32,000 nucleotides of DNA from Iocasia fonsfrigidae (GCF_017751145.1 NZ_CP046640.1:444137-476136), one strand, 5' to 3'. Shown: positions 5,737 through 25,219, counted from the stretch's first letter. Notes: generated by a model not told the origin, from the sequence alone. Program-made: numbers and translations.

Positions 5737-5764
5737 AACCCTGGGGATTATCCTCAGGGTTTTC
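5737..5764 (+). terminator. Probable rho-independent terminator after the S55 peptidase gene
   Basis: AACCCTGGGG-ATTA-TCCTCAGGGTTTTCC is a GC-rich stem with one bulge, followed by a short T-run. Confidence 0.5.
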
Positions 5765-5853
5765 CATTAACTACCTGTCTAAATAGTTGATTTAATAGCC
5801 TAAGTATAATATTATGTAATATGGAAAGTTAGCTATTGGGGGGACAGTAATTT

Positions 5854-10029: not shown

Positions 10030-10626
10030 ATGAAGGAATATTTAAAAAAGATAAGGGATTTAAAATTACCTACATCTGAAGAAGAACAAGCCTTATGGTT
10101 TAGATATAAAAATGAGAATGAGCAGGAGGCCCGCCAGGAGTTGATTAGCTATTACCAGCCTCTGGTCTTTAAACTTGTCCAGCAGTTTAAGGCTGATCGG
10201 GGAGTATTTATGGACCTGATCCAGGAGGGCAATCTAGGGTTGATAGATGCTGTTGATTCCTATAGACCAGGATTTAATACCAGGTTTTCTACCTTTGCTG
10301 TTTATCATATCAGGGGTAGAATTATTGATTACCTTAATAAAGGTAGTAGGGCCAGAAAATTCCCTGTTATGGGAGATATCCTTCCTGAGAAACTGGAGGA
10401 AACTGTAGAAAGGTCAATACTGGCTGACAGGGTTAAAGAGCTTGTCAAAGGCTTACCCTCTAAGGAAAGACAGGTTATTAACAAGCGTTTCCTGGATAGT
10501 AAAAAGGCAGAACTGGCTGCTGCAGAAATGGGAATAAGCCTGTCTTACCTTTACCGCCTACAGAAAAAAGCCGTTAGAAGGCTTCGGGGTAAACTAGCTA
10601 CTTTTATTCATCAGTGGAATAAGTAA
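10030..10626 (+). CDS. Small sigma-70-family sigma factor (group-3/FliA-SigB-SigF-like regions 2 and 4, very short linker)
   Basis: Region 2 reads LISYYQPLVFKLVQQF...DLIQEGNLGLIDAVDSYRPGFNTRFSTFAVYHIRGRIIDYL. Region 4 HTH reads LPSKERQVINKRFLDSKKAELAAAEMGISLSYLYRLQKKAVRRLR. An RBS AAGGAG lies 13 nt after the tamB stop, so the gene is probably co-transcribed with tamB. Confidence 0.85.
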   Translation: MKEYLKKIRDLKLPTSEEEQALWFRYKNENEQEARQELISYYQPLVFKLVQQFKADRGVFMDLIQEGNLGLIDAVDSYRPGFNTRFSTFAVYHIRGRIIDYLNKGSRARKFPVMGDILPEKLEETVERSILADRVKELVKGLPSKERQVINKRFLDSKKAELAAAEMGISLSYLYRLQKKAVRRLRGKLATFIHQWNK

Positions 10627-10828
10627 ACATTGTACAGCAAACAGAAGTAAAACAGTACAAACTTGGTGTGTATTGCATATAATTACAGCTAAACAACTTA
10701 AATGGCTGTTTTTATAAAAATGTGAGCAGTCAAAAATATAAGGCTTAGAAGGATATTAATAGTAGAAGATAGGAGATTAGCTAAATTGAGTAATTATTAA
10801 AGGGGTGGGTTTAGGAGTGCTTGGGATT

Positions 10829-11197
10829 ATGAGACATATTTCTTATGCCCGTGATTGGCTGTGCCGTGCAGAAAAAAAGATTGAGTCTGGTGATCTGGTA
10901 GAAGGTGAGTTTTTTCTTTCCCTTGCCGAAGCAGAGACACGTAAGGCCTGGGAAAGGAGTTATTCTTCTCGAAATAGGTGGCCGTCCAGAAAATTTCCAC
11001 TGGCTCTTACTTTTAGTCTGTTCTTAATGGCTGCGATTGCTTTTGTTTTCTTTTTTAGAGGTGATCCCCAGCTGGAGCCGGTAGAATTAAAGCTGACCGA
11101 AGGGTATCAACAGAGTGTTCGACTGACAGACAGGGGTAATATACGTTTAATCAGTGTTGATCTATCTGTTAATAATAATTTGAATAGGGGGAAGTAA
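10829..11197 (+). CDS. Single-pass membrane protein of unknown function, translationally coupled to bamA (candidate sigma partner)
   Basis: The predicted layout is a cytoplasmic helical N-domain of about 60 aa, a TM segment (LALTFSLFLMAAIAFVFFF), and an external tail of about 40 aa. The start is ambiguous: GTG 10805, GTG 10817, or ATG 10829. I prefer ATG 10829, which has AGGAG 11 nt upstream. The TAA stop lies 1 nt before the bamA GTG. I recognised no family. Confidence 0.55.
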   Translation: MRHISYARDWLCRAEKKIESGDLVEGEFFLSLAEAETRKAWERSYSSRNRWPSRKFPLALTFSLFLMAAIAFVFFFRGDPQLEPVELKLTEGYQQSVRLTDRGNIRLISVDLSVNNNLNRGK

Positions 11198-11198
11198 T

Positions 11199-12908
11199 GT
11201 GAAGCATTTCTTGGTACTTATTATATTATGTAATCTTATATTATTTTCAGGTGTTACTATGGCAGAGAATGAGCTATTAGAGCAGAACCTTCAATTTATT
11301 ACAGCGATTGCCTTCGAAGGGAATGAAAGGGTCTCCGATGAGGAGATTAGATCCTTAATCAGTACTGAAGCTGGTGAATTGCTTGATGAAGAAAAAATAA
11401 AGAATGATATGCAGAAGCTCTATGATACTGGATATTTTCAGGATGTAAAGGTATCTTTTGAAGTCTATAATGCTGGCTTAAAGGCTATTTTTGAACTGTC
11501 TGAATACCCGCTTGTAGAAGATATTATTATTAAAGGTAATGAATCATATAGTGATCAGGAATTAATGAAGGAAATAAAACTGGTCAAAGGTGAGATATTA
11601 AACCATAATGCTATACTTGAAAGTAGAAAAGCTATTGAACGATTATATCAGGAGGCTGGTTATGTCCTGGCGGTTTTAAAAGATATTGACATAGATGATA
11701 ATGGTGTAGTTAGCTTTGAAATTAATGAGGGTTATTTAAATGAACTAATCATAGAGGGTAATGAAAAAACAAAGGATTTTGTTATCCGCCGTGAATTTGA
11801 TTTTAAAAAAGGTGATGTAATTAATATTAAAGAACTCCAGGAGTCCTTTCGTCAACTGGTCAGATTAAATTACTTTGAAGATATAAATCCTAAACTAGAA
11901 AGGGTAGATTTTGAGAAAAATACTGCTAATGTAATTCTGGAGGTAACTGAGGGTCGAACAGGCCGCTTTAATTTTGGTGTTTCTTATAGTACAGCAGAGG
12001 GAAAAGGCTGGGGTGGTTTTATTACAGTTCAGGAAAGAAACCTTTTTGGTAACGGCCAGACCCTTGGTTTTGACTGGGAATTTGGCAGCACAACAAATTA
12101 TGAGATTAACTTTTACGAACCATGGGTTTTGGGAACACCGACTTCTTTTGGAATAGGGGTTTATGATAAATCATATAGTTCTGAGGATTCTGTTAAAGGG
12201 GATTATGATGTTGATAAATCAGGGGGGAGTATTTCCCTGGGACATCCCCTGACAGAGGAATGGAATGGTAGAATTAAATTTAAGGTTGAAAAATCAAAGC
12301 TTGATTGGGAAGATAAGGAATATACAAAAGATGGTAAGACTTATGAAAATGACCCTGAAGATATTGATCTGCGTAGTATTACTCTACAGACCAGTAGAGA
12401 TACCACCAATCATCCCTTTAATCCTACTGGTGGTGGTATAGATGTTCTATCATTAGAATATGCCGGTCACTTCCTTGGTGGGGATGCCGATTTTGTTAAA
12501 TACAGGACTGATTTCAGGAGATTTTACAATGGTTTTAAAGGTAACCAGGCCTGGGCACTCCGCTTACAGACAGGTTTTAGTGATGGGGATCTGCCAGAGC
12601 TTGAAAAATATAGATTAGGTGGGTCAGAGACAATACGTGGTTATGATAAAGGTTCTTTTACTGGTGATGATATGCTTTTGGTAAATCTGGAGTATAGAAT
12701 ACCAATTACTGAGAATTTTACTGGTGTGCTCTTTGCTGATGGTGGTAATACCTGGGATTCTTACCGGGATATACAGCTTGATGACCTACACTATTCGACT
12801 GGTTTGGGAATTAGAATGGATACATTCTTAGGCCAGATTAGATTAGACTATGGTTTCAATGAAGATGGTGAAGGACAACCTCATTTCAGTATTGGTAATA
12901 CATTTTAG
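11199..12908 (+). CDS. bamA: Outer membrane protein assembly factor BamA (Omp85 family), short POTRA arm
   Basis: A signal peptide is present. POTRA-like repeats are I.F.GN..VSDEEIRSLI....G..L.....I..D...LY.TGYF.DV and IIIKGNE..SD.EL.... The Omp85 barrel carries RLGGSETIRGY and a terminal beta-signal HFSIGNTF. At 569 aa there is room for only about 3 POTRA domains. Confidence 0.9.
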   Translation: MKHFLVLIILCNLILFSGVTMAENELLEQNLQFITAIAFEGNERVSDEEIRSLISTEAGELLDEEKIKNDMQKLYDTGYFQDVKVSFEVYNAGLKAIFELSEYPLVEDIIIKGNESYSDQELMKEIKLVKGEILNHNAILESRKAIERLYQEAGYVLAVLKDIDIDDNGVVSFEINEGYLNELIIEGNEKTKDFVIRREFDFKKGDVINIKELQESFRQLVRLNYFEDINPKLERVDFEKNTANVILEVTEGRTGRFNFGVSYSTAEGKGWGGFITVQERNLFGNGQTLGFDWEFGSTTNYEINFYEPWVLGTPTSFGIGVYDKSYSSEDSVKGDYDVDKSGGSISLGHPLTEEWNGRIKFKVEKSKLDWEDKEYTKDGKTYENDPEDIDLRSITLQTSRDTTNHPFNPTGGGIDVLSLEYAGHFLGGDADFVKYRTDFRRFYNGFKGNQAWALRLQTGFSDGDLPELEKYRLGGSETIRGYDKGSFTGDDMLLVNLEYRIPITENFTGVLFADGGNTWDSYRDIQLDDLHYSTGLGIRMDTFLGQIRLDYGFNEDGEGQPHFSIGNTF

Positions 12909-12929: not shown

Positions 12930-13454
12930 ATGCAAAATTACAGGCCTAAATTTGCAGTAGTAATTGGATTAATATTAATAATTACTGGATTTCTGGTTTT
13001 GGTTTATCCACAAACTAATATAGCGGCAGGGGATGATGCTAAAGGCAGGATTGCCTATGTTGACCTCTGGACTGTTTTTAATGTTCATCCAGGTAAGGCT
13101 TCTGCCGAGGAGGAACTCAATATGCTTGCCCAGGATATGCAGGCTGAATTAGAGGAGAAAGCCAGTGACCTGCCAGAGGCTCAGCAGCAGGAAATGTTGC
13201 AGGAATACCAGACTAAATTGAGTCAGCAGGAGCAGGAATTAATCGAGGGTATTATTGATCAAATCAAAGCAGCTATAGTAGATGTAGCTGAGGAGAAAGA
13301 AGTTAAGTTAGTGGTTGATAAACAGAGTATTTTCTATGGTGGTTATGATTTGACCCAGGATGTCATAGATTATATTAATAAACAGCAGGGGTCATTACAG
13401 GAACCACTTGATGCAACAGAAGAAGAATTATCAGATGAATTAACTGGGGATTAA
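12930..13454 (+). CDS. skp: Skp/OmpH-family periplasmic chaperone
   Basis: It has an N-terminal hydrophobic signal. IAYVDLWTVFNVHPGKASAEEELN... is followed by a Q/E-rich coiled coil and then VKLVVDKQSIFYGGYDLTQDVIDYIN. This strand, helical tentacle, strand layout is the OmpH pattern. Confidence 0.8.
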   Translation: MQNYRPKFAVVIGLILIITGFLVLVYPQTNIAAGDDAKGRIAYVDLWTVFNVHPGKASAEEELNMLAQDMQAELEEKASDLPEAQQQEMLQEYQTKLSQQEQELIEGIIDQIKAAIVDVAEEKEVKLVVDKQSIFYGGYDLTQDVIDYINKQQGSLQEPLDATEEELSDELTGD

Positions 13455-13469
13455 AAAAGGAGGCAGGAG

Positions 13470-14432
13470 ATGTTGAAGGGAATATTCAGAATTTTGACAG
13501 TTGTGGCAGTTATACTTGGAATTGCTGGACTGGGTCTGTTTTATCTTGTTTCATCAGGGACGGCATCTCCTGAAAGTGTGAATATCAGGACAGTGCTGGA
13601 TAATTATTTAACAGATAATCCTGCTGGGCAACTGAGTGAGGAGATAAGCCTTAAGAGAGAAAACCTCCGCAATCAGCTGGCAAGGTTAAGAAATCAGGAA
13701 AAGCTCTTAAATAATAAAAAGGCTGCTCTGGAGCTAATTGTTGAAGAAGAACTGGCAGAAATCAGAGGAAAATATGAAGAAGAAATTCTTGATTTTAAAA
13801 AAGAACTGGAAGTTTCTTTTGAGAATTTTAGAGAAGAAAAAAGGCAGGAATATCAGGAAAAAATACTGGTTAAGAAGGAATCTTATGAGCAAAGACTTGA
13901 TGAATTAATCGAAGGATATAAGGATAAAAAAAGGCAGGAACTAGCAGATTATCAGCAGCAGCTACTTGATAATTACCATAAGGAAACTTTAAATTACCGT
14001 CTTAAACTCCTGGCTCTGGAGCTTAGTGAGGAAGAAGAGAGGGCTTATAAGGATAAAATAACTGGCCTGGAGCAGAGTCAGGAGGAAGCGGTCAAGGCTA
14101 AAGAAGATCAAATGAATGAGAGTCTTCAGGAAGAAACCAGCCGCTTAAGACAGGAATTTGACGAGGACTTCCTTGAGCTGCAGGAGAAAATGGAACAGGA
14201 GATGAAGCGTGAGATAAACAGTAAACTGCTTTCTAATGAGCAGGCATTGGAGGGTTTTATTGCTGAACAGGAAGTGCTGCTAAATGAGGAAATGGTACAA
14301 AGGCGTAGGGAATTAAGTGAACGAAGCAAAGAAGAGATTGTATTACTGGAGAATTTAGTCAGGGAGATAAGGAATGATTATCTTACCCTCCAGTCACAAA
14401 TTGCTAAACTGGAGAAGGAAGTGATTAAATAG
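13470..14432 (+). CDS. Membrane-anchored, very long E/K/Q-rich coiled-coil protein (Skp-like N-terminus only)
   Basis: An N-terminal TM/signal (ILTVVAVILGIAGLGLFYLV) is followed by about 280 aa of almost uninterrupted heptad-like charged sequence. The Skp C-terminal strand motif is missing. The gene is wedged between two skp-like genes, and its stop abuts the next start (14432/14433). Confidence 0.55.
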   Translation: MLKGIFRILTVVAVILGIAGLGLFYLVSSGTASPESVNIRTVLDNYLTDNPAGQLSEEISLKRENLRNQLARLRNQEKLLNNKKAALELIVEEELAEIRGKYEEEILDFKKELEVSFENFREEKRQEYQEKILVKKESYEQRLDELIEGYKDKKRQELADYQQQLLDNYHKETLNYRLKLLALELSEEEERAYKDKITGLEQSQEEAVKAKEDQMNESLQEETSRLRQEFDEDFLELQEKMEQEMKREINSKLLSNEQALEGFIAEQEVLLNEEMVQRRRELSERSKEEIVLLENLVREIRNDYLTLQSQIAKLEKEVIK

Positions 14433-14876: not shown

Positions 14877-15903
14877 GGGTCTTAGTATTACTGAACTAGC
14901 CCGGCGGGTTAATGGTAAAGTGCTGGGTGACCCGGCCTATCTTATATATGGTGTTTCCGGGGTTAGTGAGAGTACAGCTGAGACTATTACTTTTGCCGAA
15001 ACAGAGCAATACCTCTCCGAGGCTTTAAAGTCAAAAGCCGGGGCTGTAATTGTGCCTGATGGTTTTACAGCTAAAGGGAAGAATATGATTGTAGTTAAAA
15101 AACCGCGTCTGGCTTTTGCCAGAATAGCTGCTGTTTTTGCCCCGAATGTTTTTTATAGGCCGGGGATAGACCCGACATCGACAATTGCTGATTCGGTTGT
15201 AATTGGAGAAAATGTCTCTATCCATCCCTATGTAGTGATTGATGAGGGGGCTGAAATAGCTGACCATGTAATCCTGGCCCCTGGTGTTTATATTGGTGCC
15301 GGGGTAAAGGTGGGAGAGAGTAGTATACTTCACCCTGGAGTTGTAGTCGAATATGACACAGTAATCGGCAAAAAGGTTATGATCCATAGTGGAACAGTGA
15401 TTGGTTCAGATGGCTATGGTTTTGTGACTGACCAGGACGGCCACCATAAAATACCCCAGCTGGGGAAGGTAATTATTGAAGATGATGTAGAGATAGGGGC
15501 CAATGTGACTATTGACCGGGGGACAAGCGGTCCTACTGTTATCGGCAGAGGGACCAAGACAGATAATCTTATCCAATTAGCTCATAATGTTCAAATTGGT
15601 GAAGAAAACCTACTGGTGGCTCAGGTGGGTATCGCTGGTAGTAGTAAGACTGGAAGAAGGGTTACACTTGGCGGCAAAACCGGTGTTGTAGGTCACCTGG
15701 AGATAGGGGATAATACTACTGTTGCTTCTGCTAGTGTAATAACTAAAGACACCCCATCAGGTGTTTTTTATTCGGGCAGCCCAGCCCAGGATCATAAAAA
15801 GGAATTACGTGAACAGGCTGCCAGGCGAAAAATGCCTCAGCTTTTAAAGAGGATAAGTAAGTTGGAGAAGAGGATAGGAGAATTAGAAAAGAAACTTAAT
15901 TAA
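14863..15903 (+). CDS. lpxD: UDP-3-O-(3-hydroxyacyl)glucosamine N-acyltransferase LpxD
   Basis: LSITELARRVNGKVLGD..., a long left-handed beta-helix of hexapeptide repeats, the GSDGYGF block and the IGDNTTV..ASVITKD tail are typical of LpxD. I prefer the ATG at 14863 (RBS GAGGAAGAAGG), which overlaps the previous stop by 14 nt. The ORF-track start at 14779 adds 28 residues read from the upstream gene. Confidence 0.9.
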   Translation: MTENEGLSITELARRVNGKVLGDPAYLIYGVSGVSESTAETITFAETEQYLSEALKSKAGAVIVPDGFTAKGKNMIVVKKPRLAFARIAAVFAPNVFYRPGIDPTSTIADSVVIGENVSIHPYVVIDEGAEIADHVILAPGVYIGAGVKVGESSILHPGVVVEYDTVIGKKVMIHSGTVIGSDGYGFVTDQDGHHKIPQLGKVIIEDDVEIGANVTIDRGTSGPTVIGRGTKTDNLIQLAHNVQIGEENLLVAQVGIAGSSKTGRRVTLGGKTGVVGHLEIGDNTTVASASVITKDTPSGVFYSGSPAQDHKKELREQAARRKMPQLLKRISKLEKRIGELEKKLN

Positions 15904-15934
15904 TAAACTTTTTGTTAAATTTATAAATGCCCAG

Positions 15935-16137
15935 CCTATTTTGTCATATATTCATTCACTAAAAAAGCTAATTTCACCACAGGTACTCCGTAAGGTTGCC
16001 ATCTCCTCCTTAAGCCAATTAGCAACAAAATAAACTCACTTCACTACGTTGCGTTCAAACAGGATTTTGTTAATCGCTAATTGGCTTAAGTGCGGGGATG
16101 GAGCTTTTTCAAGTTCATTCATATATGCTAAAATAGG
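15935..16137. repeat. Nested imperfect palindrome C of about 200 bp (may also act as the lpxD terminator)
   Basis: There are three concentric arm pairs. CCTATTTTGTCATATAT (15935-15951) pairs with ATATATGCTAAAATAGG (16121-16137), 15/17. AAAAAGCT pairs with AGCTTTTT. CTTAAGCCAATTAGC (16009-16023) pairs with GCTAATTGGCTTAAG (16076-16090), 15/15, extended by CCATCTCC / GGGGATGG and AACAAAAT / ATTTTGTT. The 5' arm has an unpaired bulge of about 29 nt. The 3' side is followed by TTTTT. Confidence 0.6.
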
Positions 16138-16209
16138 CATGTTTTGTTTAATTTAGCGATTATAAATATTCCAGTATTACTTAAATATACCAATAAAGGG
16201 GAAATAGAT

Positions 16210-16818
16210 GTGAGAAGATATGTAGTAGGATTTCTTTTTTTAGTAGTATTAGTGAATGTAGCTGGGAGTGTTATGGCTGTGGACAGGCTTTTGGAGATGC
16301 CGACAGCGGGGTTGATTCATGGTGATGTATTAGTTCGCGGAGAGATAATTCCGGGTTCGCACAGGAATATTGAGGGAGTTTTTGCTCTGGCTGACAGGGT
16401 TCAGTTGGGTGTTGTTGGTAATTATCTGGATAAGGATGATGAGCTGGAGACTGCTGGTAGTCTAAAGCTTCTGTTATTTGATGAGAAGGATGGTTTTCCT
16501 TCAGTTAGTATAGGGGCTAGAGAGAAAGATTTTTATTTTGTAATGAGCAAAAATCTTGGTCATGATATTAGGGCACACCTGGGGATAGGCAACGGGGAAT
16601 TTGATGGTTTGTTTCTTGGTTTTAATAAACTGATCAACCCGGTGGCTGTCCAGACTTCTTCTTCAACAGGTGTCCCCCTTCCCATTAATCTGATGGCGGA
16701 ATATGCTAATCGACAGGTTAATCTTGGTGTCAGGGTTTATTTCCGTGAAGCGATAGCTGTTGATGCCGGGTTAATGGATTTTGAGAAGGTAAAATTAGGG
16801 ATGAATTATAGTTTTTAA
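16210..16818 (+). CDS. Small predicted outer-membrane beta-barrel protein, family unknown
   Basis: I prefer the GTG at 16210 (RBS AAAGGGG), which gives 202 aa. A signal peptide MRRYVVGFLFLVVLVNVAGSVMA is present. Alternating hydrophobic strands (VNLGVRVYF, IAVDAGLMDF) and a C-terminal beta-signal KLGMNYSF ending in Phe support a barrel. Confidence 0.55.
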   Translation: MRRYVVGFLFLVVLVNVAGSVMAVDRLLEMPTAGLIHGDVLVRGEIIPGSHRNIEGVFALADRVQLGVVGNYLDKDDELETAGSLKLLLFDEKDGFPSVSIGAREKDFYFVMSKNLGHDIRAHLGIGNGEFDGLFLGFNKLINPVAVQTSSSTGVPLPINLMAEYANRQVNLGVRVYFREAIAVDAGLMDFEKVKLGMNYSF

Positions 16819-16831
16819 AATATACGGTAAG

Positions 16832-16860
16832 AAAAGTCCTCAGTAATGGGGACTTTTTCT
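16832..16860 (+). terminator. Rho-independent terminator after the small OMP gene
   Basis: AAAAGTCC-TCAGTAATGG-GGACTTTTTCTT is a stem followed by a T-run. Confidence 0.6.
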
Positions 16861-16884
16861 TGTAAAAATATAATTATAAAGATC

Positions 16885-17008
16885 GACAAATATATTTACT
16901 TCCCTTGTCGTGCGCTGCGGTGTCCTACCTCCACTTACTGTCGAGAAATTCTCCTTCGGCGTCCTGCCTACGGATAATTTCTAGAGTCGTACAGCAAATA
17001 TATTTGTC
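16885..17008 (+). repeat. 124-bp structured intergenic repeat, copy 1
   Basis: The termini are GACAAATATATTTACT...AAATATATTTGTC. Aligned by eye, most positions match copies 2 and 3. All copies have the same orientation. Confidence 0.85.
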
Positions 17009-17086
17009 TGAGTTAAGATAGAATAGTAATAATTTTTATTTTGATAAAACTCAATTCATTTACCATATATTGCATAGCACTGGGCG

Positions 17087-17116
17087 TTTACAGGTGCTTG
17101 TGGCTGATGGTATAAT
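17087..17116 (+). promoter_or_regulatory. Sigma-A-type promoter for the ABC-lpxC operon
   Basis: TTTACA (17087-17092), 18 nt, then an extended -10 TGGTATAAT (-10 hexamer at 17111-17116). The RBS AGGGGTGA and the ATG at 17143 follow about 12-27 nt downstream. Confidence 0.5.
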
Positions 17117-17142
17117 ATTTGTTAGATAGGGGTGACAGATAT

Positions 17143-19491
17143 ATGTTTTGGATGAAAACTGCTTTCAGGAAAGATATCTTTTTACTGATGGCTGCTGCTA
17201 TTCTGCTGGGGGTTATCCTGGCTCTGGCTGGGGGTTATCTCGCTGATAATTATTTTGCTAATATGGTCAGCGGTCTTATTGGTGATTCTGGAGAATATGA
17301 CCTTTTGTTTACTATCTCCAGTGATAAGGAAGATATCGCTATAGAGCAGATTAAAAATATAGCTGCTGATACTCTCCCGGGTTCTTCTTTTAAGACAGGA
17401 CCTAAGGTGGCAGGGAGTAGTAATTACTTATTGAAAATACCTGATAAATATAAGAATGAAGAGGTATATGTTAATCTGGGCAAATATTTCTCTGATATCC
17501 CTGGGTTAATGAGCAAGACTATCATGACAGAACCGAAACTGTCTATCAGAGGTTTCAGGGGGGATACTCTGCCGGTTATTAGACCACTTATAGCTGAGAT
17601 AGAGGGAATAGACTTTATCTATCCTAGTAGTGATGGCCTTGATATTATTGTAAAAAAACCGGAGTTTCTTACTGAAGTTAAGAAAGAGATAAATAGTATT
17701 CTGAGTAATTATCATATCCTGGAGGTCAGATATCCCCTCAACCAGCACCCGTCTAACCTCGGCCAGTTGAGGGGAGAGGTTGTTGAACTGGTAGAGGGTA
17801 ACCTTGATGAGGTTATTGATGTGACGATCAGTAATGAGTCAGATCGGGTTTCTCTTTTGACCAGTTTAAAACAGATGAAGACTTTTCTGATGTCCTATGC
17901 TACTAAAGTGCTTATTAGTGATCTTGAAAATAGTGAGGCTGTTCTGGAAGGGAGTACCCTGCTGGCCAGTAATGAAGATGGTGAGCAATTTGTCCTGGAG
18001 GTAATCAGTAATACTGATCAGCAGGTCATTGCTCTGGTTCAGGAGGGGAGTATTAATAAACCCATTTCTCTGGAGGTTTATTTTCAGGACTATGGGGATG
18101 AGGTAAAATACCTGGGTAAAGGCATAGTAGATAACCCGCGCCAGGAGCTGGCTGATGCCCTGGAACAACTTAATGAAATAGCCCCTAAACTGGAGGGTTT
18201 CCTGGAACAGAGTGAACAGCTTGTTGAGTTTAGTAATATGCTCAGTGAGGATTTAGCGGGGATAAATGATGGTTTAGGTCAACTGGAAAATACCAGTCAG
18301 AAACTGAGCAGTTCTCTAGAAGAATGGCAGCAGGAGGGGCTGTCAAACTTTCTGTCTGAGTTACTGGGTATCCTTGATGATATTAAGAAAAATACAGGTG
18401 ATATTACAGATATTCAGCGGGAGCTGGTTATGACCAGTAATAATCTAAAAGAAGGTGCTGCACTGATTGAAGAAAAGATAGCCTATGTGCCGCGTAGTAA
18501 CGGTATGTATCAGCAGTTAGATGAACTGAAAGATATCTTTCTACGGCTTTCTGAAGGTTTAGATGATAATTATGACCTGGTGGCCATGAGACTGGCAGAT
18601 ATGGATCCGGTTCTAAGTTCTATTGGGAGCTGGGAGGAAAAGATTGCTTCACTACTCAAGGTTGAGGAGACCTTAAATAGTGGGGCGAACTGGCAGGAGA
18701 TCGAAGGGATTATTGCAGACATTGATCAGACTGCCAGGATTATAGATGCCAGTCAATTACAGGATAAGCTGACATCTATTCAGGAATTACTACAGGACTT
18801 AAATACCAACCGCTTACCTGTTGTTTTGAATCAACTCTCTTATATTCAGAATTCATTACCTGATCTTGAAGAATCTGAGATTGTTGAGACGATTAATTTG
18901 ATTGATAGTTATATAGCTGGTCAGGTGATTCCAGGTGATCAGATTCAACTGTTAATTAAAGGAAAATATAATAGCAAGGGGCTTGTTAATAAGATAGAAG
19001 GGGTTGTAAACAACCCGACTGTTACCTATATAGAGATGGATGCCGGGGTTTTACAGCCCAATACACGGGGGGAGATTTTTAATGTCTTAAACCAGGTCAG
19101 GGCTGTTATTTCAACAATTGTTGCTTTTGTATTTACTATACTGGTAATGATTATGGATCAATCATTGATTATAAGTACACTGAGGCTTAATGGCAGCAGG
19201 GGATATTTTTATGGTTTTGTAAGTGGGGGTTTAATCTTTAGTTTGATCTGCCTGCTGAGTGGGATAGATTTTCCTTATCTTAATTTTAGTACAGAATTTA
19301 TTGTCGGTGGTTTGTCAGGTGTTTTGATCGCATTTTTATCTAAGATGCTTAATCCAGTAGATAGAGAAGAATGGGAGGCAGGTAAGGCTCTGGGTTTTTC
19401 CACAGCAGAGATAATGCATGAGATTATTATACCGGCTGGTAAACCTGGATTACTCTACCTAATGAATTACCCCAGAATTATTTTTAAATAA
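17143..19491 (+). CDS. Atypical ABC-transporter membrane component: TM1, extracytoplasmic domain of about 610 aa, 3 TM helices, C-terminal EAA coupling loop
   Basis: I prefer the ATG at 17143, because the TTG at 17119 lies upstream of the predicted TSS. TM1 is IFLLMAAAILLGVILALAGGYLA. The large soluble region has a helical L..G / L...L heptad-like stretch of about 250 aa (LSEDLAGINDGLGQLENTSQKLSSSLEEW...). Three C-terminal TMs follow. Then EAGKALGFSTAEIMHEIIIP (nt 19375-19434) fits EAA-x3-G-x9-I-x-LP. Only 18 residues follow the motif. Confidence 0.6.
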   Translation: MFWMKTAFRKDIFLLMAAAILLGVILALAGGYLADNYFANMVSGLIGDSGEYDLLFTISSDKEDIAIEQIKNIAADTLPGSSFKTGPKVAGSSNYLLKIPDKYKNEEVYVNLGKYFSDIPGLMSKTIMTEPKLSIRGFRGDTLPVIRPLIAEIEGIDFIYPSSDGLDIIVKKPEFLTEVKKEINSILSNYHILEVRYPLNQHPSNLGQLRGEVVELVEGNLDEVIDVTISNESDRVSLLTSLKQMKTFLMSYATKVLISDLENSEAVLEGSTLLASNEDGEQFVLEVISNTDQQVIALVQEGSINKPISLEVYFQDYGDEVKYLGKGIVDNPRQELADALEQLNEIAPKLEGFLEQSEQLVEFSNMLSEDLAGINDGLGQLENTSQKLSSSLEEWQQEGLSNFLSELLGILDDIKKNTGDITDIQRELVMTSNNLKEGAALIEEKIAYVPRSNGMYQQLDELKDIFLRLSEGLDDNYDLVAMRLADMDPVLSSIGSWEEKIASLLKVEETLNSGANWQEIEGIIADIDQTARIIDASQLQDKLTSIQELLQDLNTNRLPVVLNQLSYIQNSLPDLEESEIVETINLIDSYIAGQVIPGDQIQLLIKGKYNSKGLVNKIEGVVNNPTVTYIEMDAGVLQPNTRGEIFNVLNQVRAVISTIVAFVFTILVMIMDQSLIISTLRLNGSRGYFYGFVSGGLIFSLICLLSGIDFPYLNFSTEFIVGGLSGVLIAFLSKMLNPVDREEWEAGKALGFSTAEIMHEIIIPAGKPGLLYLMNYPRIIFK

Positions 19492-19521
19492 GATATTATT
19501 AAATCCCCAGGAGGGAGTATA

Positions 19522-20253
19522 ATGCTGAGGATAAAAGGTTTGAAAAAAAGCTTTAATAATGATATAGTATTAGATGAAATAGACTTTGAACTCAGGTCAG
19601 GTGAGATTACTGCTGTTATGGGGCCGAGTGGTTGTGGAAAATCAACTTTTATCCGTTCAATTAACAGACTTGTTGAACCTGATGATGGAGAGATATTTTT
19701 TAGGGACATACCGGTTCACCAGCTTACCCAGGATAAACTGGAAGGAGTCAGGCAGAATATTGGTTTTGTCTTCCAGCATTTCAATCTAATTAAACGCCTG
19801 GATGTCAAACAGAACGTTGCCCTGGGCCTTATTAAAAAGGGTTATTCAGTAGCTGAGGCCTGTGAAAAGGCAGTTCTTGCCCTGGCTGATGTGGGCCTGG
19901 CAGAGATGGGTGATGCCAGTGTATTAAACCTGAGTGGTGGTGAGAAACAGCGAGTTGGTATTGCCCGGGCCCTTGTGCTGGAACCTGAGCTGATCCTCTT
20001 TGATGAACCAACAGCTTCACTTGACCCGATACTGGTTAGAGAGGTTCTTGATGTTCTGGAGGATATTGTTGTTCGGAAACGCACTTCGATGATAATAGTT
20101 ACCCATGAAGTGACATTTGCCCGTAGAGTAGCTGATCAGGTTTATTTTATGGATAAGGGAAAATTTGTTGAATCAGGAAAACCAACAACGGTTTTTGAAA
20201 ATCCAGGCTCCTGGATAGGTAAAAAATATAAAAAAATTATCAATTATACTTAA
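19522..20253 (+). CDS. ABC transporter ATP-binding protein (GlnQ/MetN-like subfamily)
   Basis: Motifs present: Walker A GPSGCGKST, Q-loop FQHFNL, signature LSGGEKQRVGIARAL, Walker B LILFDEPTASLDP and H-loop IVTHE. The NRLVEPDDGEI pattern is typical of ATPases that partner with EAA-loop permeases. Confidence 0.88.
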   Translation: MLRIKGLKKSFNNDIVLDEIDFELRSGEITAVMGPSGCGKSTFIRSINRLVEPDDGEIFFRDIPVHQLTQDKLEGVRQNIGFVFQHFNLIKRLDVKQNVALGLIKKGYSVAEACEKAVLALADVGLAEMGDASVLNLSGGEKQRVGIARALVLEPELILFDEPTASLDPILVREVLDVLEDIVVRKRTSMIIVTHEVTFARRVADQVYFMDKGKFVESGKPTTVFENPGSWIGKKYKKIINYT

Positions 20254-20328
20254 AAATAATAAAAATATGCAGGAGTTTTTATATTGCTTATTGAATTAAA
20301 GAAGATAGATATTAGAAGGAGGGGGAAA

Positions 20329-21210
20329 ATGACTAAGGGAGGTAGTTTTCAAAAGACAATCACTAAAGCAATAAATTATTCAGGTACTGCGCTTCACAGC
20401 GGTAAAGAAGTAAGTATTAAATGCCTTCCTGCTAAAGCTGATCGGGGTATTGTATTTCGCCGGGTAGACCTGCCGGGTAGTCCGGAGATTAAGGCAGATC
20501 CGTTAAATGTAGTTTCTACCAGGAGATGTACCAGTATTGGCTTGAGTACTAATGAAGAAGCCAGGGTACACACTATAGAACATATTATGTCAGCTTTATG
20601 GGCTATGGGTGTTGATAATGCTATTATAGAGATTGATAATGCTGAGACCCCTGTTGGTGATGGTAGTGCCCTTCCCTTTATTGATTTGATTAAACAGGCT
20701 ACTATCAGGGAATTAGCTGTACCACGTATGAGCTGGCAGATAGAAGAACCAGTTTCAGTTAAAAAAGGGGATATGTATATGGTTGCCCTGCCCTATGATG
20801 GGTTTAAAATAAGTTATACCCTTCATTATGACCACCCTGTGATTGGTTCACAGTTTAGGGAGTTTGACATGGGTAGGGATTCCTTTATAGATGATTTTGC
20901 TCCGGCAAGGACCTTTGGTTTTGAGAGGGAGATTGAGACCCTTCATAGAAGAGGACTGGCCTTAGGGGGAAGTCTGGAGAATGCTGTTTTGATTGGCGAA
21001 GAGGGAACTGTAAATCCCCTGCGTTTCTCTGATGAGTTTGCCAGACATAAGGTGCTTGATGTTGTCGGTGATATGGCCTTAAACGGTTATATTCGCGGGC
21101 ACATTATTTCTGTTAAATCAGGACATTACCTACATGTAGAACTGGCTAAAGAAATAAAGAAAAGGTTTGTTATTGAAGAGGAGGTAGAAGTAAGTAATGA
21201 TGTATATTAA
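20329..21210 (+). CDS. lpxC: UDP-3-O-acyl-N-acetylglucosamine deacetylase LpxC
   Basis: QKTI...SGTALHSGKEV.I...PA.ADRGIVFRRVDL, HTIEHIMSAL, TFGFE.EIE.L...GLALGGSLENAV and FARHKVLDVVGDMAL are LpxC zinc and active-site blocks. I prefer the ATG at 20329, which has a GGAGGGGG RBS. Confidence 0.93.
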   Translation: MTKGGSFQKTITKAINYSGTALHSGKEVSIKCLPAKADRGIVFRRVDLPGSPEIKADPLNVVSTRRCTSIGLSTNEEARVHTIEHIMSALWAMGVDNAIIEIDNAETPVGDGSALPFIDLIKQATIRELAVPRMSWQIEEPVSVKKGDMYMVALPYDGFKISYTLHYDHPVIGSQFREFDMGRDSFIDDFAPARTFGFEREIETLHRRGLALGGSLENAVLIGEEGTVNPLRFSDEFARHKVLDVVGDMALNGYIRGHIISVKSGHYLHVELAKEIKKRFVIEEEVEVSNDVY

Positions 21211-21625
21211 TGAGATTCAGGAAATATTACCACACCGATATCCTTTTTTACTGGTAGACAGGATAGTGGAATTGAAAGAGGAAAAGGTTGTTGGTCTTAA
21301 GAATGTAACAATGAATGAAGAATTTTTTCAGGGGCATTATCCAGGACACCCTATTATGCCTGGTGTTTTAATTGTAGAATCAATGGCCCAAGTATCAGGT
21401 TTTTTATTGATGCACAGTCATAGTGATCTGGAAGATAAGATACCACTATTTGCAGGTATTGATAAGGTCAGGATCCGCCGGCCGGTTATACCTGGCGACA
21501 CCTTAAAGATTGAGGCTGAAATTATCAGGGCCAGGGGTCGAATTGCTAAAGTTTTGGCCAATGCCTATGTGGAAGATAAACTAGTGACTGAGGCAGAATT
21601 GATGTTTGCCTTTGAAGATAAATAG
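21197..21625 (+). CDS. fabZ: 3-hydroxyacyl-ACP dehydratase FabZ
   Basis: ILPHRYPFLLVDRIVEL...FFQGHYPGHPIMPGVLIVESMAQV is the FabZ hot-dog signature. The gene overlaps the lpxC stop by 14 nt. Confidence 0.93.
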   Translation: MMYINEIQEILPHRYPFLLVDRIVELKEEKVVGLKNVTMNEEFFQGHYPGHPIMPGVLIVESMAQVSGFLLMHSHSDLEDKIPLFAGIDKVRIRRPVIPGDTLKIEAEIIRARGRIAKVLANAYVEDKLVTEAELMFAFEDK

Positions 21626-21674
21626 AAGGGAGAGAGGGGTTTTGAGTCAAAGAGCGGAAAGGAAACTGCTCCAT

Positions 21675-22451
21675 ATGGCTGATATACATTCAACAGCCAT
21701 TATTAAGCCTGGAGCAAAACTTGGTAAGGGTGTAGAGATAGGCCCTTACAGTATTATTGGAGAGAATGTTGAGATAGGGGAGGGTACAAAAGTTGGTCCA
21801 CATGTACTCATAGAAGGCTGGACCAAGCTAGGTAAGAATAATCAAATTTTTCACGGGGCCTCGATAGGTCTGGAACCACAGGATATGAAATTCAAGGGTG
21901 AAGAGAGTTATCTCTTTATCGGTGATAATAATACTATCCGGGAAAATGCTACCATACACCGTGGAACAGAAGAGGGTGGTGGGGAGACCTGGATTGGTAA
22001 TGATAACCTAATTATGGCTTATTGTCATGTGGCTCATGATTGTCAACTGGGTAATCATATTATTATGTCAAATGCTACTAATTTAGCTGGACATGTTATT
22101 GTTGAAGATTATGCTGTACTTACCGGTTTAACTGGTATCCATCAGTTTGTTAGAATAGGTAAGATGGCTATGGTTGGTGCCCATTCCAAGGTGGTTAAGG
22201 ATGTACCACCTTATGTTTTAGTAGACGGCCACCCGGCCCGGGTCAATGGTATTAATGTAGTCGGCCTGCGGCGCAATGGTGTTTCGCCAGAATTAAGGTC
22301 AGAGATAAAGCGGGCATATAAATTACTTTATCGTTCCAATCTTAATATCTCTCAGGCCATTGAAAAAATGGATCAAGAACTGGATGCCAGTGAAGAGATA
22401 GAACACTTTCTGCGGTTTTTACGGAATGCTCAGCGCGGTATCTGTAGGTAG
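21675..22451 (+). CDS. lpxA: Acyl-ACP--UDP-N-acetylglucosamine O-acyltransferase LpxA
   Basis: IHSTAIIKPGAKLGKGVEIGPYSIIGENVEIGEGT is followed by a hexapeptide beta-helix, then HVAHDC.LGN, then the C-terminal helical domain (NVVGLRRNG...AYKLLYRS). The ATG at 21675 fits homologues best. The TTG at 21642 is an alternative start. Confidence 0.9.
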   Translation: MADIHSTAIIKPGAKLGKGVEIGPYSIIGENVEIGEGTKVGPHVLIEGWTKLGKNNQIFHGASIGLEPQDMKFKGEESYLFIGDNNTIRENATIHRGTEEGGGETWIGNDNLIMAYCHVAHDCQLGNHIIMSNATNLAGHVIVEDYAVLTGLTGIHQFVRIGKMAMVGAHSKVVKDVPPYVLVDGHPARVNGINVVGLRRNGVSPELRSEIKRAYKLLYRSNLNISQAIEKMDQELDASEEIEHFLRFLRNAQRGICR

Positions 22452-22462
22452 TGTGATTTGAT

Positions 22463-23275
22463 ATGTCCAGGATAGGTTTGCTTGCTGGTAAAGGACGCTT
22501 GCCATTTATCTGGGCGAAAGCAGCCCAGCAAAATGGACATGAGGTATATATTTATAGATTAATAAAAGAAGAGAAAAGAGAGCTGGAGGGAATTGCTGAT
22601 CAGGTAAGAGATATTAATGTTGCTGCCCTGGATGAACTTATCAATACCATTAAAGCAGACGGCATTAAAGAATTAGTTATGATTGGTAAGGTCGAAAAAA
22701 CACTGCTTTTTCAGGGTGTTCAACTAGATCAGAGGATGGAGAGACTCCTGGCAGGGCTTGATGTCCTTCAGGATGATAATATTATGCTGGCTTTTGTGGC
22801 AGAACTGGCCAGTGAGGGTATTAAAGTAATAGATCAGGCTACTTATATAAGGGAATTGTTTCCTGAAGCAGGATTATTAACTTCAGGCAAACCTGATGAG
22901 CAATTACTTTCAGATATGAAGTACGGCTTTCAGATAGCCCGTGAGATAGGCAGGCTGGATATTGGACAGACGGTTGTTGTTAAAAACAAGGCTGTACTGG
23001 CTGTTGAAGCTATTGAGGGCACTGACCTGGCCATAAAACGCGCTGGTCAGCTCGGTGGTCCAGGGGCTGTGGTTGCTAAAGTGAGTAAACCACAGCAGGA
23101 CTGGCGGTTTGATATACCAACAATTGGTGAAACAACTATTAGAAATTTAATAGAGATTAATGCCAGAGGGCTGGTCATAGAAGCCGGTAAGACTTTTATA
23201 ATCGAACAGGAGAGCTTAATTAAGGAAGCAGAGAGACATGGTATTATAATTATGGCTATGGAAGCTTCAGGTTAG
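22463..23275 (+). CDS. lpxI: UDP-2,3-diacylglucosamine pyrophosphatase LpxI (DUF1009 family)
   Basis: IGLLAGKGRLP..., DIGQTVVVKNKAVLAVEAIEGTDLAIKRAG, VVAKVSKPQQDWRFDIPTIG..T and GLVIEAGKT.II are the LpxI pattern. Its position between lpxA and lpxB matches lpxI-type clusters, which lack lpxH. Confidence 0.8.
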   Translation: MSRIGLLAGKGRLPFIWAKAAQQNGHEVYIYRLIKEEKRELEGIADQVRDINVAALDELINTIKADGIKELVMIGKVEKTLLFQGVQLDQRMERLLAGLDVLQDDNIMLAFVAELASEGIKVIDQATYIRELFPEAGLLTSGKPDEQLLSDMKYGFQIAREIGRLDIGQTVVVKNKAVLAVEAIEGTDLAIKRAGQLGGPGAVVAKVSKPQQDWRFDIPTIGETTIRNLIEINARGLVIEAGKTFIIEQESLIKEAERHGIIIMAMEASG

Positions 23276-23279
23276 TGAG

Positions 23280-24425
23280 GTGGGCCTTTTGGGTAAGATA
23301 ATGGTTGTTACAGGTGAAGTCTCCGGTGATATGCATGCTGCACAGGTGGTAAAGGCTATTAAGGAGATTGCACCTGATATTACTTTTTATGGGATGGGTT
23401 CTACATTTTTAAAAAAAGAGGGTGTCGAGATATTAATTGACCCGGGGGAACTGAGTACGATTGGTTTTATTGAAGCTTTTAAGAACACCAGACAGCACTT
23501 AGCCAATCTCAGGCTCCTTAAAAAGAGTGTTAAGGAGAGGAGACCAGACCTTATCTTACTGGTAGACAACTCTGGGTTTAATATGCTGCTGGCCCGTGCG
23601 GTTAGTAGACTCGGTGTCCCGCTTGTTAATTACTTTAGTCCTTCTGCCTGGGTGTGGGGCAGCTGGCGGGCCGGATGGATGACCCGCTATCGAGCAACAA
23701 TTGCCTCTGTCTTTCCCATGGAAGCCGAAGTATACCGTCGGGCAGGAGCTGACGTAGAGTTTGTAGGTCACCCGCTCCTGGATATGGTCAGGGTAAATAA
23801 GGAAAAAGAGGAGATCTGTCATGATTTAGAATTATCCCCTGATAGACCGGTTATCGGTCTTCTACCGGGGAGTCGCCGACAGGAAGTAGAAAAACTCCTT
23901 CCTGATATGTTGGAGGCAGCAGCAGAACTTGCTAAAGAGAATAAAGGGTATCAATTTGTGCTACCTCTGGCTGATGGTATTGACAGGTCATTTGTCGCCA
24001 GGAGAGCTGCCAGGTACAGCTTGGTAGTTAAACTGGTTGAGGGCTTTTCTCATGAGGTAATGAAGATTGCTGCTGTGCTGGTTACAGCTTCAGGGACAGC
24101 TACTCTGGAGGCAGCAATTATCGGTACACCGATGTTGATCGTCTATCGGACCAGTGCCTCTACCTATTGGTTGGCTACTAAGCTGATGAAGACTGACTAT
24201 GTTGGCCTGCCCAATATAATTGCTGGTAAAGAGATAGTACCAGAATTAATTCAGCAGAATTTGACAGCTGACAGGATACTCTTTGAGCTGAAGTGTCTGC
24301 TGGAGAGTCCTTTTGCACTCAGAGAAGCTAGAGAACAACTAGCAGGGGTCAAACAGAAACTGGGCTCTAGTGGTGCTGTCAGGCGTGTTGCTGAACTGGT
24401 ATTGAAGAAAGCTAATTTGTCTTAA
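23280..24425 (+). CDS. lpxB: Lipid-A-disaccharide synthase LpxB
   Basis: KIMVVTGEVSGDMHAA..., LILLVDNSGFN, VNYFSPSAWVWG..R, LLPGSRRQEV and ASGTATLEAAI.GTPMLIVYR form the GT19 LpxB signature. The start is uncertain (GTG 23280, TTG 23289, or ATG 23301). Confidence 0.9.
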   Translation: MGLLGKIMVVTGEVSGDMHAAQVVKAIKEIAPDITFYGMGSTFLKKEGVEILIDPGELSTIGFIEAFKNTRQHLANLRLLKKSVKERRPDLILLVDNSGFNMLLARAVSRLGVPLVNYFSPSAWVWGSWRAGWMTRYRATIASVFPMEAEVYRRAGADVEFVGHPLLDMVRVNKEKEEICHDLELSPDRPVIGLLPGSRRQEVEKLLPDMLEAAAELAKENKGYQFVLPLADGIDRSFVARRAARYSLVVKLVEGFSHEVMKIAAVLVTASGTATLEAAIIGTPMLIVYRTSASTYWLATKLMKTDYVGLPNIIAGKEIVPELIQQNLTADRILFELKCLLESPFALREAREQLAGVKQKLGSSGAVRRVAELVLKKANLS

Positions 24426-24446
24426 GATAATTATGAATATATCTTC

Positions 24447-24570
24447 GACAAATATATTTACTTCCCTTGCCGTGCGCTGCGGTGTCCTACCTCCGCTTAC
24501 TGTCGTGAAATTGTCCTTCGGCGTCCTGCCTACGTACAATTTCAAGAGTCATCCAGTAAATATATTTGTC
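24447..24570 (+). repeat. 124-bp structured intergenic repeat, copy 2
   Basis: The perfect 16-bp termini are GACAAATATATTTACT / AGTAAATATATTTGTC. The inner stem is TGAAATTGT / ACAATTTCA. It lies between lpxB and lptC. Confidence 0.85.
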
Positions 24571-24628
24571 TAAGTTACAGAATAATATGTTTGTTTTGGA
24601 TTTCTTTAGTAATAGAGGGGTTGATATT

Positions 24629-25219
24629 ATGTCAGGTAGGGTTTTTGCTCTTGTTTTATTAATTACAGTGGTATTAATAAGCGGGGTTTACTTTGCTTTT
24701 ACCTATCAACCTGCAGTTGATGAAAGCGATGACAGCAGTACAGAGACTCTGGAGGCAGATACAATCCCTGAGAATAAATTTAAGGATATTGATTTGACTG
24801 TTTTTAATGGGGATGATTCTGTTAGCTGGCAGATAAAGTCCAGTGATATTAGCAGTTTTTCACAGGGAGAACTGCTTAAGCTATCACCACTCAAGCTTAC
24901 TGCCTATGATGAGAATGATGAGGTCTTATATACTATTACTGCTGATTACTGTAATTACCGCTCTGCACTGGGTGAGATGGAGATTACTGGTTCTGTTGTG
25001 ATGGAAAAGGATGAACTGAGGATGATGACAGCCCATCTTGACTGGGACAGGGATGAAGAATTAATCAGAGGTAGTGGTGGTGTTAGTTTTACTTCACCAT
25101 CCTATCAGTTGACAGGTGGGAGGTTTCAGGCTAATACTGATTTTAGCCAGATAACTGTCTATAAAGATGAGCAGGAGCGGGCAGCACTTCTCTGGAAAGA
25201 GGTGGGTAAGGGTTCATGA
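24629..25219 (+). CDS. lptC: LPS export system protein LptC (membrane-anchored OstA-like fold)
   Basis: I prefer the ATG at 24629 (RBS AGAGGGG 8 nt upstream), giving 196 aa. An N-terminal TM (VFALVLLITVVLISGVYFAF) is followed by a beta-jellyroll-like repeat pattern (...L.L.AYDENDEVLYTITADY..Y......MEITG.V.M......M.T..L.W......I.G.GGV.F). It sits immediately upstream of lptA-lptB. Confidence 0.75.
   Translation: MSGRVFALVLLITVVLISGVYFAFTYQPAVDESDDSSTETLEADTIPENKFKDIDLTVFNGDDSVSWQIKSSDISSFSQGELLKLSPLKLTAYDENDEVLYTITADYCNYRSALGEMEITGSVVMEKDELRMMTAHLDWDRDEELIRGSGGVSFTSPSYQLTGGRFQANTDFSQITVYKDEQERAALLWKEVGKGS

Follow-up and report, generated by a model that had tools for sequence, protein, structure and literature searches.

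A permease-ATPase pair of mixed ATP-binding cassette design beside the lipid A genes of Iocasia fonsfrigidae, a candidate for outer-membrane biogenesis in diderm Firmicutes

How do diderm Firmicutes build and maintain their outer membrane (OM)? This question is raised by a 32,000-nucleotide (nt) stretch of Iocasia fonsfrigidae DNA (NZ_CP046640.1:444137-476136; hereafter the window, at its full length), in which a gene pair encoding a membrane subunit and an ATPase from the ATP-binding cassette (ABC) superfamily lies directly 5' of the genes for lipid A synthesis. Diderm Firmicutes lack LptE and the BamB-E lipoproteins, most of them lack Lol, and the Halanaerobiales lack Mla (PMC13018214, PMC10665443, PMC5007114). 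The pair is conserved at the junction of lpt and lpx genes in all three diderm lineages, and every named protein of the family is annotated as 'hypothetical' or as a generic permease, which makes it a concrete candidate for a missing OM function; since it lies directly 5' of the lipid A genes in nearly every diderm Firmicute relative found, we regard it as a strong candidate for a missing step in OM construction of these bacteria. A preliminary description of the window had reported both open reading frames, and both are present, with the following parts, all on the + strand:

17143..19491, +: open reading frame of the ABC membrane subunit, 782 amino acids (aa), from ATG 17143
17176..17241, +: predicted transmembrane helix TM1, residues ~12-33, N-terminus inside (hydropathy peak 2.81, three K/R before it; AlphaFold2 helix 8-46)
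17281..18135, +: predicted N-terminal part of the ectodomain, residues 47-331, with alpha/beta units of ferredoxin/ACT-like fold and a small beta-barrel (separate AlphaFold2 model of residues 47-335, predicted local distance difference test (pLDDT) 87.3)
18136..18933, +: predicted helical stalk, residues 332-597, in which four long helices, each 46-57 residues in length, are arranged as hairpins at 346-571 (AlphaFold2)
18934..19065, +: predicted membrane-proximal beta-alpha-beta-beta unit before TM2, residues 598-641 (AlphaFold2 strands 600-606, 628-633 and 636-638, helix 611-622)
19075..19350, +: predicted TM2-TM4, residues ~645-736 (hydropathy; AlphaFold2 helices 641-682, 687-706 and 715-736)
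19375..19434, +: EAA-type coupling loop EAGKALGFSTAEIMHEIIIP, residues 745-764, followed by exactly 18 residues and the stop codon
19522..20253, +: open reading frame of the ABC ATPase, 243 aa, polar-amino-acid-importer type (Pfam ABC_tran, E=4.5e-34)

The 782-aa product is identical over its full length (100%) to a protein of Halocella sp. SP3-1 listed by NCBI as 'ABC transporter permease'. Hydropathy defines four transmembrane (TM) segments in it (residues ~12-33, 650-672, 688-708, and 716-735), and AlphaFold2 (40 homologues, pLDDT 75.3) predicts the same four helices. Lysine and arginine residues are found on the N-terminus, the TM2-TM3 loop, and the C-terminal tail, and natural relatives in which an ABC ATPase domain is fused to the C-terminus independently support a cytoplasmic location for this end. 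The topology originally proposed, namely one TM helix, an extracytoplasmic region of ~610 residues, three further TM helices, and a cytoplasmic C-terminus, is thus upheld by hydropathy, charge pattern, structure prediction, and natural fusions. TM2 and TM3 are connected by a loop of only four residues in the model (between helices 641-682 and 687-706), where the sequence reads RLNGSRG, and three short cytoplasmic helices are predicted at residues 741-781. The cytoplasmic parts of the whole system consist of the ATPase and a permease tail of ~45 residues.

The EAA loop is the best-conserved segment of the family and is retained in relatives of 17-27% identity, with E743, G751, P764, and P768-G769 invariant across distant members, although the canonical E745 is often replaced. 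When the C-terminal 149 residues were searched alone, BPD_transp_1 was the sole family matched, over model positions 60-111 of 184 (E=1e-4, 22.4 bits; the Pfam gathering cut-off for this family, PF00528, is 26.4 bits). One relative, P0034, exceeded that cut-off with 27.2 bits over model positions 22-111, and the same family was matched at E<0.1 by 15 of 29 diverse C-terminal fragments, no other family being recurrent. A profile of C-terminal fragments compared with PDB sequences had MetI (twice), ArtQ, and PotC as its four best matches (E=0.03-0.07), all with their EAA loops in register; residues 78-149 of MetI align with the EAA-loop region of the family. The last ~110 residues of the permease therefore resemble those type I importer permeases (BPD_transp_1, MetI, ArtQ, and PotC) over the first half only. 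Type I permeases have five to six or more helices per subunit (PMC8386196, Table 1). Since the BPD_transp_1 match stops at position 111 of 184, that is, after ~60% of the model, the pair lacks the two helices found behind the EAA loop in every type I permease, and AlphaFold2 predicts only short helices after residue 736. This is in agreement with the preliminary description, which had placed the EAA motif at nt 19375-19434 with 18 residues and no TM helix behind it. A frameshifted or split permease gene was considered and rejected, as the permease end is conserved in all relatives and is directly followed by the ATPase gene or domain.

The partner ATPase contains all the expected catalytic motifs (Walker A, Q-loop, LSGGE, Walker B, and H-loop). 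Its NCBIfam scores are higher for importer ATPases (TcyN 218 bits, PhnC 208, GlnQ 207) than for FtsE (162) and LolD (154), the best matches being below their own cut-offs, and its closest relatives of solved structure are ArtN (4yms_J, 2e-54), ArtP, and HisP. The best family and structure matches are all importer ATPases, in line with its earlier assignment to the GlnQ/MetN type. ArtN and ArtQ belong to one and the same complex, Art(QN)2, and each of them is matched by the respective subunit here. The C-terminal permease matches together with the ArtN-like ATPase point to a polar-amino-acid-type type I importer ancestor for both subunits, and the polar-amino-acid and methionine importers are their probable evolutionary source. 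A contact between the EAA loop and the ATPase is supported only indirectly: the two proteins occur fused in nature, the loop is conserved, and the ATPase is of the importer type.

How much of an importer does the pair still contain? As in Art(QN)2, HisQMP2, GlnPQ, and MetNI, the EAA loop lies on the cytoplasmic side, in a register shared with MetI; the three helices preceding it give the sole recurrent family match of the membrane subunit, and the closest counterparts of the ATPase are ArtN, ArtP, and HisP. In contrast with these type I systems, the permease lacks the two post-EAA helices (three core helices versus five to six) and carries an additional N-terminal helix and an ectodomain of ~600 residues. 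Moreover, the genes scanned in the surroundings of the pair, in the window as well as in related loci, matched no binding-protein family, Foldseek retrieved no binding-protein fold, and the genomic context is one of lipopolysaccharide (LPS) genes instead of nutrient genes.

The overall architecture recalls that of the type VII systems MacB, LolCDE, FtsEX, and YbbAP, whose subunits likewise have a large ectodomain between the first two of four TM helices (PMC5985334; PMC12646458), beta-alpha-beta units directly after TM1 and directly before TM2 with a variable insert in between, a short C-terminal helix facing the ATPase, and a site of action outside the membrane, which is likely for the pair too. 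Nevertheless, neither FtsX (PF02687) nor MacB_PCD (PF12704) was matched, by the C-terminal part at E<=10 or by 29 members at E<=0.1, and Foldseek detected no match to MacB, LolC, or FtsX. The pair also lacks the major TM2-TM3 coupling helix, so that coupling would instead run through the C-terminal EAA loop, and its ATPase is of the importer type and not of the LolD, FtsE, or MacB type. The preliminary description had stated that the membrane component fits no textbook ABC class, and we reach the same conclusion, since the pair joins a type-I-style EAA loop and ATPase to a membrane layout like that of MacB (TM1, the large ectodomain, then three TM helices). The design of the membrane domain fits none of the seven recognised types; the family is uncharacterised, but it is still an ABC system.

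The ectodomain is equally devoid of recognised relatives. Its N-terminal part opens, just outside TM1, with an invariant G-x-x-G-E-Y-D motif, and in the full AlphaFold2 model the alpha/beta units and the small beta-barrel span residues 54-330. A Foldseek search of this part against the PDB gave no match at E<1e-3, the nearest structures being generic eIF2-gamma domain III barrels and ACT-like ferredoxin folds, and no MacB, LolC, FtsX, MCE, or binding-protein structure was among the matches of the ectodomain. At the whole-permease level, no Pfam or NCBIfam family was found at E<=0.01, a full-length profile against PDB sequences yielded only coiled-coil noise plus MetI at E=2.8, and Foldseek of the full model produced only weak matches with TM-scores of ~0.1 to the resistance-nodulation-division (RND) pumps MmpL5, CusA, and SecDF, to chemoreceptors, and to helical bundles. 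Being weak and of low TM-score, these matches were not taken as homology.

Beyond the N-terminal part, the stalk has a hydrophobic periodicity peaking at 3.5 residues and a weak similarity between its two halves, and it measures either ~265-285 or ~152-168 residues in relatives, that is, a difference of one hairpin. The helices of 46-57 residues predicted for residues ~332-597 and this periodicity support the claim that the region is helical and heptad-like. The L..G repeats that had also been reported are not enriched (three in the 266-residue stalk versus five elsewhere), and the term 'periplasm-spanning' finds no support; judging from their length, the helices would reach roughly 7-9 nm. 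The membrane-proximal unit that follows starts with the conserved motif VIPGDQIQ and comprises 43-47 residues before TM2 in each of the 41 distinct relatives that were compared; TEPR and R642 are, with VIPGDQIQ, further conserved motifs of the membrane-proximal ectodomain. Across relatives, the stalk differs by one hairpin, whereas the EAA loop, the TM helices, and the parts near the membrane stay the same, which resembles the pairing of a constant Porter with a variable Sabre in type VII systems (PMC5985334).

Two other envelope systems deserve comparison. YhgE/Pip/EsaA-type proteins, to which the stalk had been likened, also combine a helix at the N-terminus with a large helical ectodomain and with TM helices at the C-terminus, but the pair has just three C-terminal helices, ending in an EAA loop with a partner ATPase, and the resemblance is not sustained by any Pfam or NCBIfam match at E<=0.01 or by L..G enrichment. 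The Mla/MCE systems (MlaFEDB, Pqi, Let, and Mce) have a role in envelope lipid trafficking, which would be a likeness for a pair encoded beside OM genes, and share with its ectodomain the succession of a beta-barrel and long helices. However, the pair has no MlaE or MCE family match other than at chance level (E=0.25 in PDB and 0.35 in Pfam, in helical parts), and no MCE structure was among the Foldseek matches of the ectodomain. Mla is reported to be absent from the Halanaerobiales and present in the Negativicutes as a group (PMC10665443). Its absence in the former leaves a gap that the pair could fill, although a simple replacement of Mla is unlikely because Sporomusa-type Negativicutes carry the pair and Negativicutes are reported, at group level, to have Mla.

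The family is small. A profile search of 1.84 billion representative proteins (E<=1e-3) retrieved 209 clusters, and a scan of one genome per GTDB species found 105 relatives, 80 of which were analysed with their loci. These belong to Halanaerobiales (including Halothermothrix and Fuchsiella), Sporomusa-type Negativicutes (Sporomusa, Pelosinus, Propionispora, Anaerospora, Dendrosporobacter, and Massilibacillus), Limnochordia, and Bacillota metagenome-assembled genomes; further searches added Orenia to the Halanaerobiales and Thermosinus and Methylomusa to the Negativicutes. The names Veillonella, Selenomonas, Megasphaera, and Halanaerobium do not occur in the hit lists, which is suggestive but comes from names rather than from a complete survey. 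A second, word-indexed homologue search with a diverse alignment retrieved the same Halanaerobiales set with no additions. No profile places the permease in a characterised family, no member was seen in a monoderm context, and linkage to lpx and lpt genes is wide. We found no publication on the pair or its family, including by the locus names Hore_17580, Hore_17590, and TcarDRAFT_0096; Antunes et al. 2016 listed other unknown genes of the cluster, and the present pair is not among them.

The gene neighbourhood links the pair with the OM. Mapping the window proteins by tblastn onto the 80 loci, of which 72 had informative downstream sequence, showed that the pair adjoins lpx or lpt genes in all but two of these 72. 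The next recognised gene after the ATPase is distributed as follows:

lpxC, adjacent: 57 of 72 loci
fabZ, adjacent: 6 of 72 loci
lptB, within ~1.7 kb: 5 of 72 loci
lpxB, adjacent: 2 of 72 loci
unrelated gene (second copies, L041 and L047): 2 of 72 loci

In every locus of sufficient length, the ATPase gene lies right beside that of the membrane subunit. The neighbourhood is maintained over considerable divergence, identity between lineages being ~25% for the permease, ~50% for the ATPase, and ~62% for LpxA. Even very divergent members (608 aa, 816 aa, and fused forms) sit between lptF/G-(~800 aa)-lptC-lptA and lpxC-fabZ-lpxA-lpxI-lpxB-msbA, and in Sporomusa ovata a gene for an lpxL-type acyltransferase is found directly 5' of the pair. 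In all three lineages of diderm Firmicutes, the conserved lpx/lpt neighbourhood thus shows the pair to be a stably retained part of the LPS block. In addition, five high-GC relatives of 930-990 aa have the ATPase domain fused ~40 residues after the EAA loop, one of these fusions being located directly before lpxC, as the pair is. It follows from the natural fusions that both proteins work together and that the permease tail is cytoplasmic.

Two Sporomusa-type genomes that also have the in-cluster copy encode a second permease-ATPase pair elsewhere (L041 7932-11102 and L047 8001-11061), in L041 between an HD-domain gene and a chemoreceptor gene and in L047 with no OM gene in its flanks. The two-gene unit is kept intact in both of these paralogous copies outside the cluster.

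What, then, might the pair do? We favour, at an about even chance, that it is an importer-derived ABC mechanotransducer acting in LPS or OM biogenesis. It would be a self-contained machine, most likely made of two membrane subunits and two ATPases (2:2), descended from a type I importer of the polar-amino-acid type of which it would have kept the first three core helices and the EAA loop. The two helices completing the translocation pathway would have been lost from the membrane subunit, and an N-terminal anchor helix and a periplasmic module of ~600 residues (alpha/beta domains, small barrel, and helical-hairpin stalk) gained. ATP binding and hydrolysis at the ATPase dimer may be passed via the C-terminal EAA helix to the four-helix membrane bundle (eight helices in the dimer), and the movement would then reach the conserved membrane-proximal periplasmic domain. 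If motion is relayed in this way, work would be done outside the cytoplasmic membrane and not in solute import, as in MacB, LolCDE, FtsEX, and YbbAP, which perform their work outside the membrane by mechanotransmission (PMC5985334, PMC12646458); by analogy, mechanotransmission or extraction of this kind is most likely. A task in LPS handling or OM assembly is the most likely one because the pair is almost always found between lpt and lpx genes; the pair could, for instance, handle a lipid A/LPS-related lipid on the outer side of the inner membrane or assist the Lpt bridge. As some diderm Firmicutes seem to be without the pair, this is probably an accessory rather than a universal step.

Several points weigh against this reading. 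Synteny is association, not function. LptB2FG, LptC, LptA, and a TamB homologue are already encoded nearby, so that no obvious gap in LPS transport demands the pair, and since the names of the four genera mentioned above were not seen, it cannot be an indispensable LPS step in all diderm Firmicutes. The similarity to importer permeases is weak for each single sequence, the window protein being below the Pfam cut-off and the PDB matches having E=0.03-0.07, and a route across the membrane might still exist in the eight-helix dimer.

Other explanations have to account for the same observations. That the pair works as an FtsEX-like switch, in which ectodomain motion activates or positions an enzyme or a tether in the periplasm (for example a peptidoglycan hydrolase or an OM-remodelling factor), possibly in sporulation or germination, where a layer derived from the inner membrane has to turn into an OM, would agree with its FtsX-like four-helix topology and large ectodomain (PMC5985334) and with its long coiled-coil element, similar to those in FtsX-partner contacts. 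A SpoIVB-like peptidase gene is present in the same cluster, and the named hosts are all Sporomusa-type Negativicutes, Halanaerobiales, or Limnochordia, with no names of non-sporulating host-associated Negativicutes. The host lineages are associated with sporulation. How inner membrane is remodelled into outer membrane in sporulating diderm Firmicutes is an open problem (PMC13018214). Nonetheless, in none of the loci does a hydrolase gene accompany the pair, its constant neighbours are lipid A and Lpt genes and not cell-wall genes, and its apparent absence from other Negativicutes is based on names in hit lists, so we consider this explanation unlikely. A sensor or regulator, with an ectodomain monitoring the LPS or lipid load on the outer side of the inner membrane and an ATPase cycle feeding back on the level or activity of LpxC in place of the LapB/YejM-type control of Proteobacteria, would explain why lpxC, which encodes the committed step, directly follows the pair in 57 of the 72 loci and why the pair and lpxC appear to share one putative promoter in the window, and non-transporting ABC sensor systems are known in Firmicutes (PMC7828314). 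With gene position as its whole basis, and with cytoplasmic parts that offer no evident domain for contact with LpxC or a protease, it is in our opinion a decidedly unlikely option.

If the pair still served nutrient uptake instead, its ectodomain would act as a substrate-binding module fused to a slimmed type I translocator, in the manner of GlnPQ or OpuA, and the proximity to lpxC would be an accident of history. Both the ATPase and the EAA loop belong to the polar-amino-acid importer type, the ectodomain comes closest, among generic folds, to ACT-like ones, which are often amino-acid binders, and one relative was named amino-acid transport permease by the Joint Genome Institute (JGI). Against these points, the two post-EAA core helices are absent in every member, no periplasmic-binding-protein fold was found by Foldseek, and the family is confined to LPS-bearing Firmicutes, its informative loci lying beside lpx or lpt genes in 70 of 72 cases even though the lineages are just 25% identical; import of nutrients is accordingly very improbable. 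The least credible proposal, to which we attach hardly any probability, is that of a lipoprotein sorter standing in for the Lol pathway, as the preliminary description had suggested on the grounds that diderm Firmicutes lack a recognisable Lol system. The topology does resemble that of LolC/E, and Negativicutes are without LolA and LolB (PMC5007114), but the premise is wrong for the Halanaerobiales, the order to which the window belongs, since they have LolA and LolCDE (PMC5007114; PMC11784454), and a lipoprotein function thereby loses its rationale here. Furthermore, the pair has no similarity to the periplasmic domains of LolC/E or MacB and no FtsX-family match, and its ATPase is nearer to importer ATPases than to LolD (218 versus 154 bits). 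From the initial idea of an envelope trafficking system, the hybrid design and the envelope link consequently stand, whereas the argument from Lol does not. Likewise, the pair cannot be LptB2FG itself, for which separate lptB and lptF/G genes are present in the window.

If the mechanotransducer reading is true, an importer has been converted into a machine unable to import in the usual way and has converged on the topology of mechanotransmission systems. A more far-reaching version is that a half-importer coupling module, outside the seven transmembrane-domain types, drives a large periplasmic machine, and that this machine was an ancestral component of the LPS-OM cluster of Firmicutes, performing an envelope lipid or LPS-handling step, and was lost with or before the OM elsewhere; we put it forward tentatively and hold it to be rather doubtful as a whole. 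The pair could also serve as a marker to trace OM loss in Firmicutes.

In the window, the pair is part of a large OM gene cluster on the + strand. Its 5' part contains mreB and the gene of a SpoIVB-like peptidase, then tamB, the gene of a sigma factor, and bamA; after these come two skp genes, lpxD, a small YjbH-like gene, and the permease-ATPase pair; lpxC-fabZ-lpxA-lpxI-lpxB lie 3' of the pair, and lptC, lptA, lptB, lptF/G, and a DUF3084 gene close the cluster. Two features define the putative transcription unit:

17087..17116, +: putative sigma-70/SigA-like promoter, TTTACA-18-TGgTATAAT with a TG-extended -10 (consensus match)
20284..24425, +: lpxC, fabZ, lpxA, lpxI, and lpxB, co-oriented (Pfam LpxC and LpxI, gene order)

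The promoter-like site, located 27 nt 5' of ATG 17143, is the sole match to 11 of the 12 consensus positions in the 8.9 kb scanned (15800-24700), which agrees with the sigma-A-like promoter described before, and the upstream gene is closed by a 12-bp hairpin and a U-run. TTG 17119 was discarded as the permease start because only a few bases separate it from the -10 box and the protein in the database begins at ATG 17143. Also as described before, no terminator-like site was found by a terminator scan of the short gaps between 19491 and 24425; each gap from the permease gene through lpxB measures <=75 nt. Considering the putative promoter, the short gaps, and the clean scan, a single seven-gene transcript from the permease gene through lpxB is plausible. 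No Rfam match was found in 15800-20400 or 24400-24600.

A ~125-nt intergenic element occurs in two copies of ~90% identity, at 16883-17008 and 24444-24566, which flank precisely the seven-gene unit from the permease gene to lpxB. Its ends are the inverted repeats GACAAATATATTT ... AAATATATTTGTC, which gives it the appearance of a miniature inverted-repeat transposable element (MITE) or a repetitive extragenic palindromic (REP) sequence. It has no copy in 81 related loci and no Rfam match.

Other genes of the cluster are also of interest. Between mreB/tamB and bamA are encoded a protein with a SpoIVB-type peptidase S55 domain (3856-5601) and a small sigma-70-family factor (10030-10626), both inside the OM cluster. 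The 224-aa protein encoded at 16144-16818, with the C-terminus ...MNYSF, is conserved directly 3' of lpxD in most Halanaerobiales and Negativicutes loci; it has no Pfam match, its Sporomusa counterpart matches the start of YjbH (PF06082), and it is possibly a small OM protein. Coiled-coil-rich proteins are encoded at 13470-14432 and 27919-29199, the second being the DUF3084 protein (COG4372), a conserved unknown of diderm Firmicutes according to Antunes et al. 2016.

In other lineages, an lptF/G gene is found 5' of the permease gene (L001, L004, L006, and L010, at positions ~4000-8000, and L081-L083). The distance between lptF/G and the permease gene is ~3 kb in Halanaerobiales loci, whereas in the window genome the gap 5' of the pair is just 325 nt and the lpt genes lie 3' of lpxB, indicating that the cluster has been rearranged there. 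In L081-L083, lptF/G is followed by an unannotated gene of ~740-800 aa and then by lptC(-lptA); this ~800-aa protein beside lptC, without Pfam match, may be LptD-like. Finally, in the divergent metagenomic lineage represented by L082, a nucleotidyl-transferase gene (10596-11579) and a PEMT/ICMT-type methyltransferase gene (13181-13771) are inserted within the lpxC-fabZ-lpxA-lpxI block.

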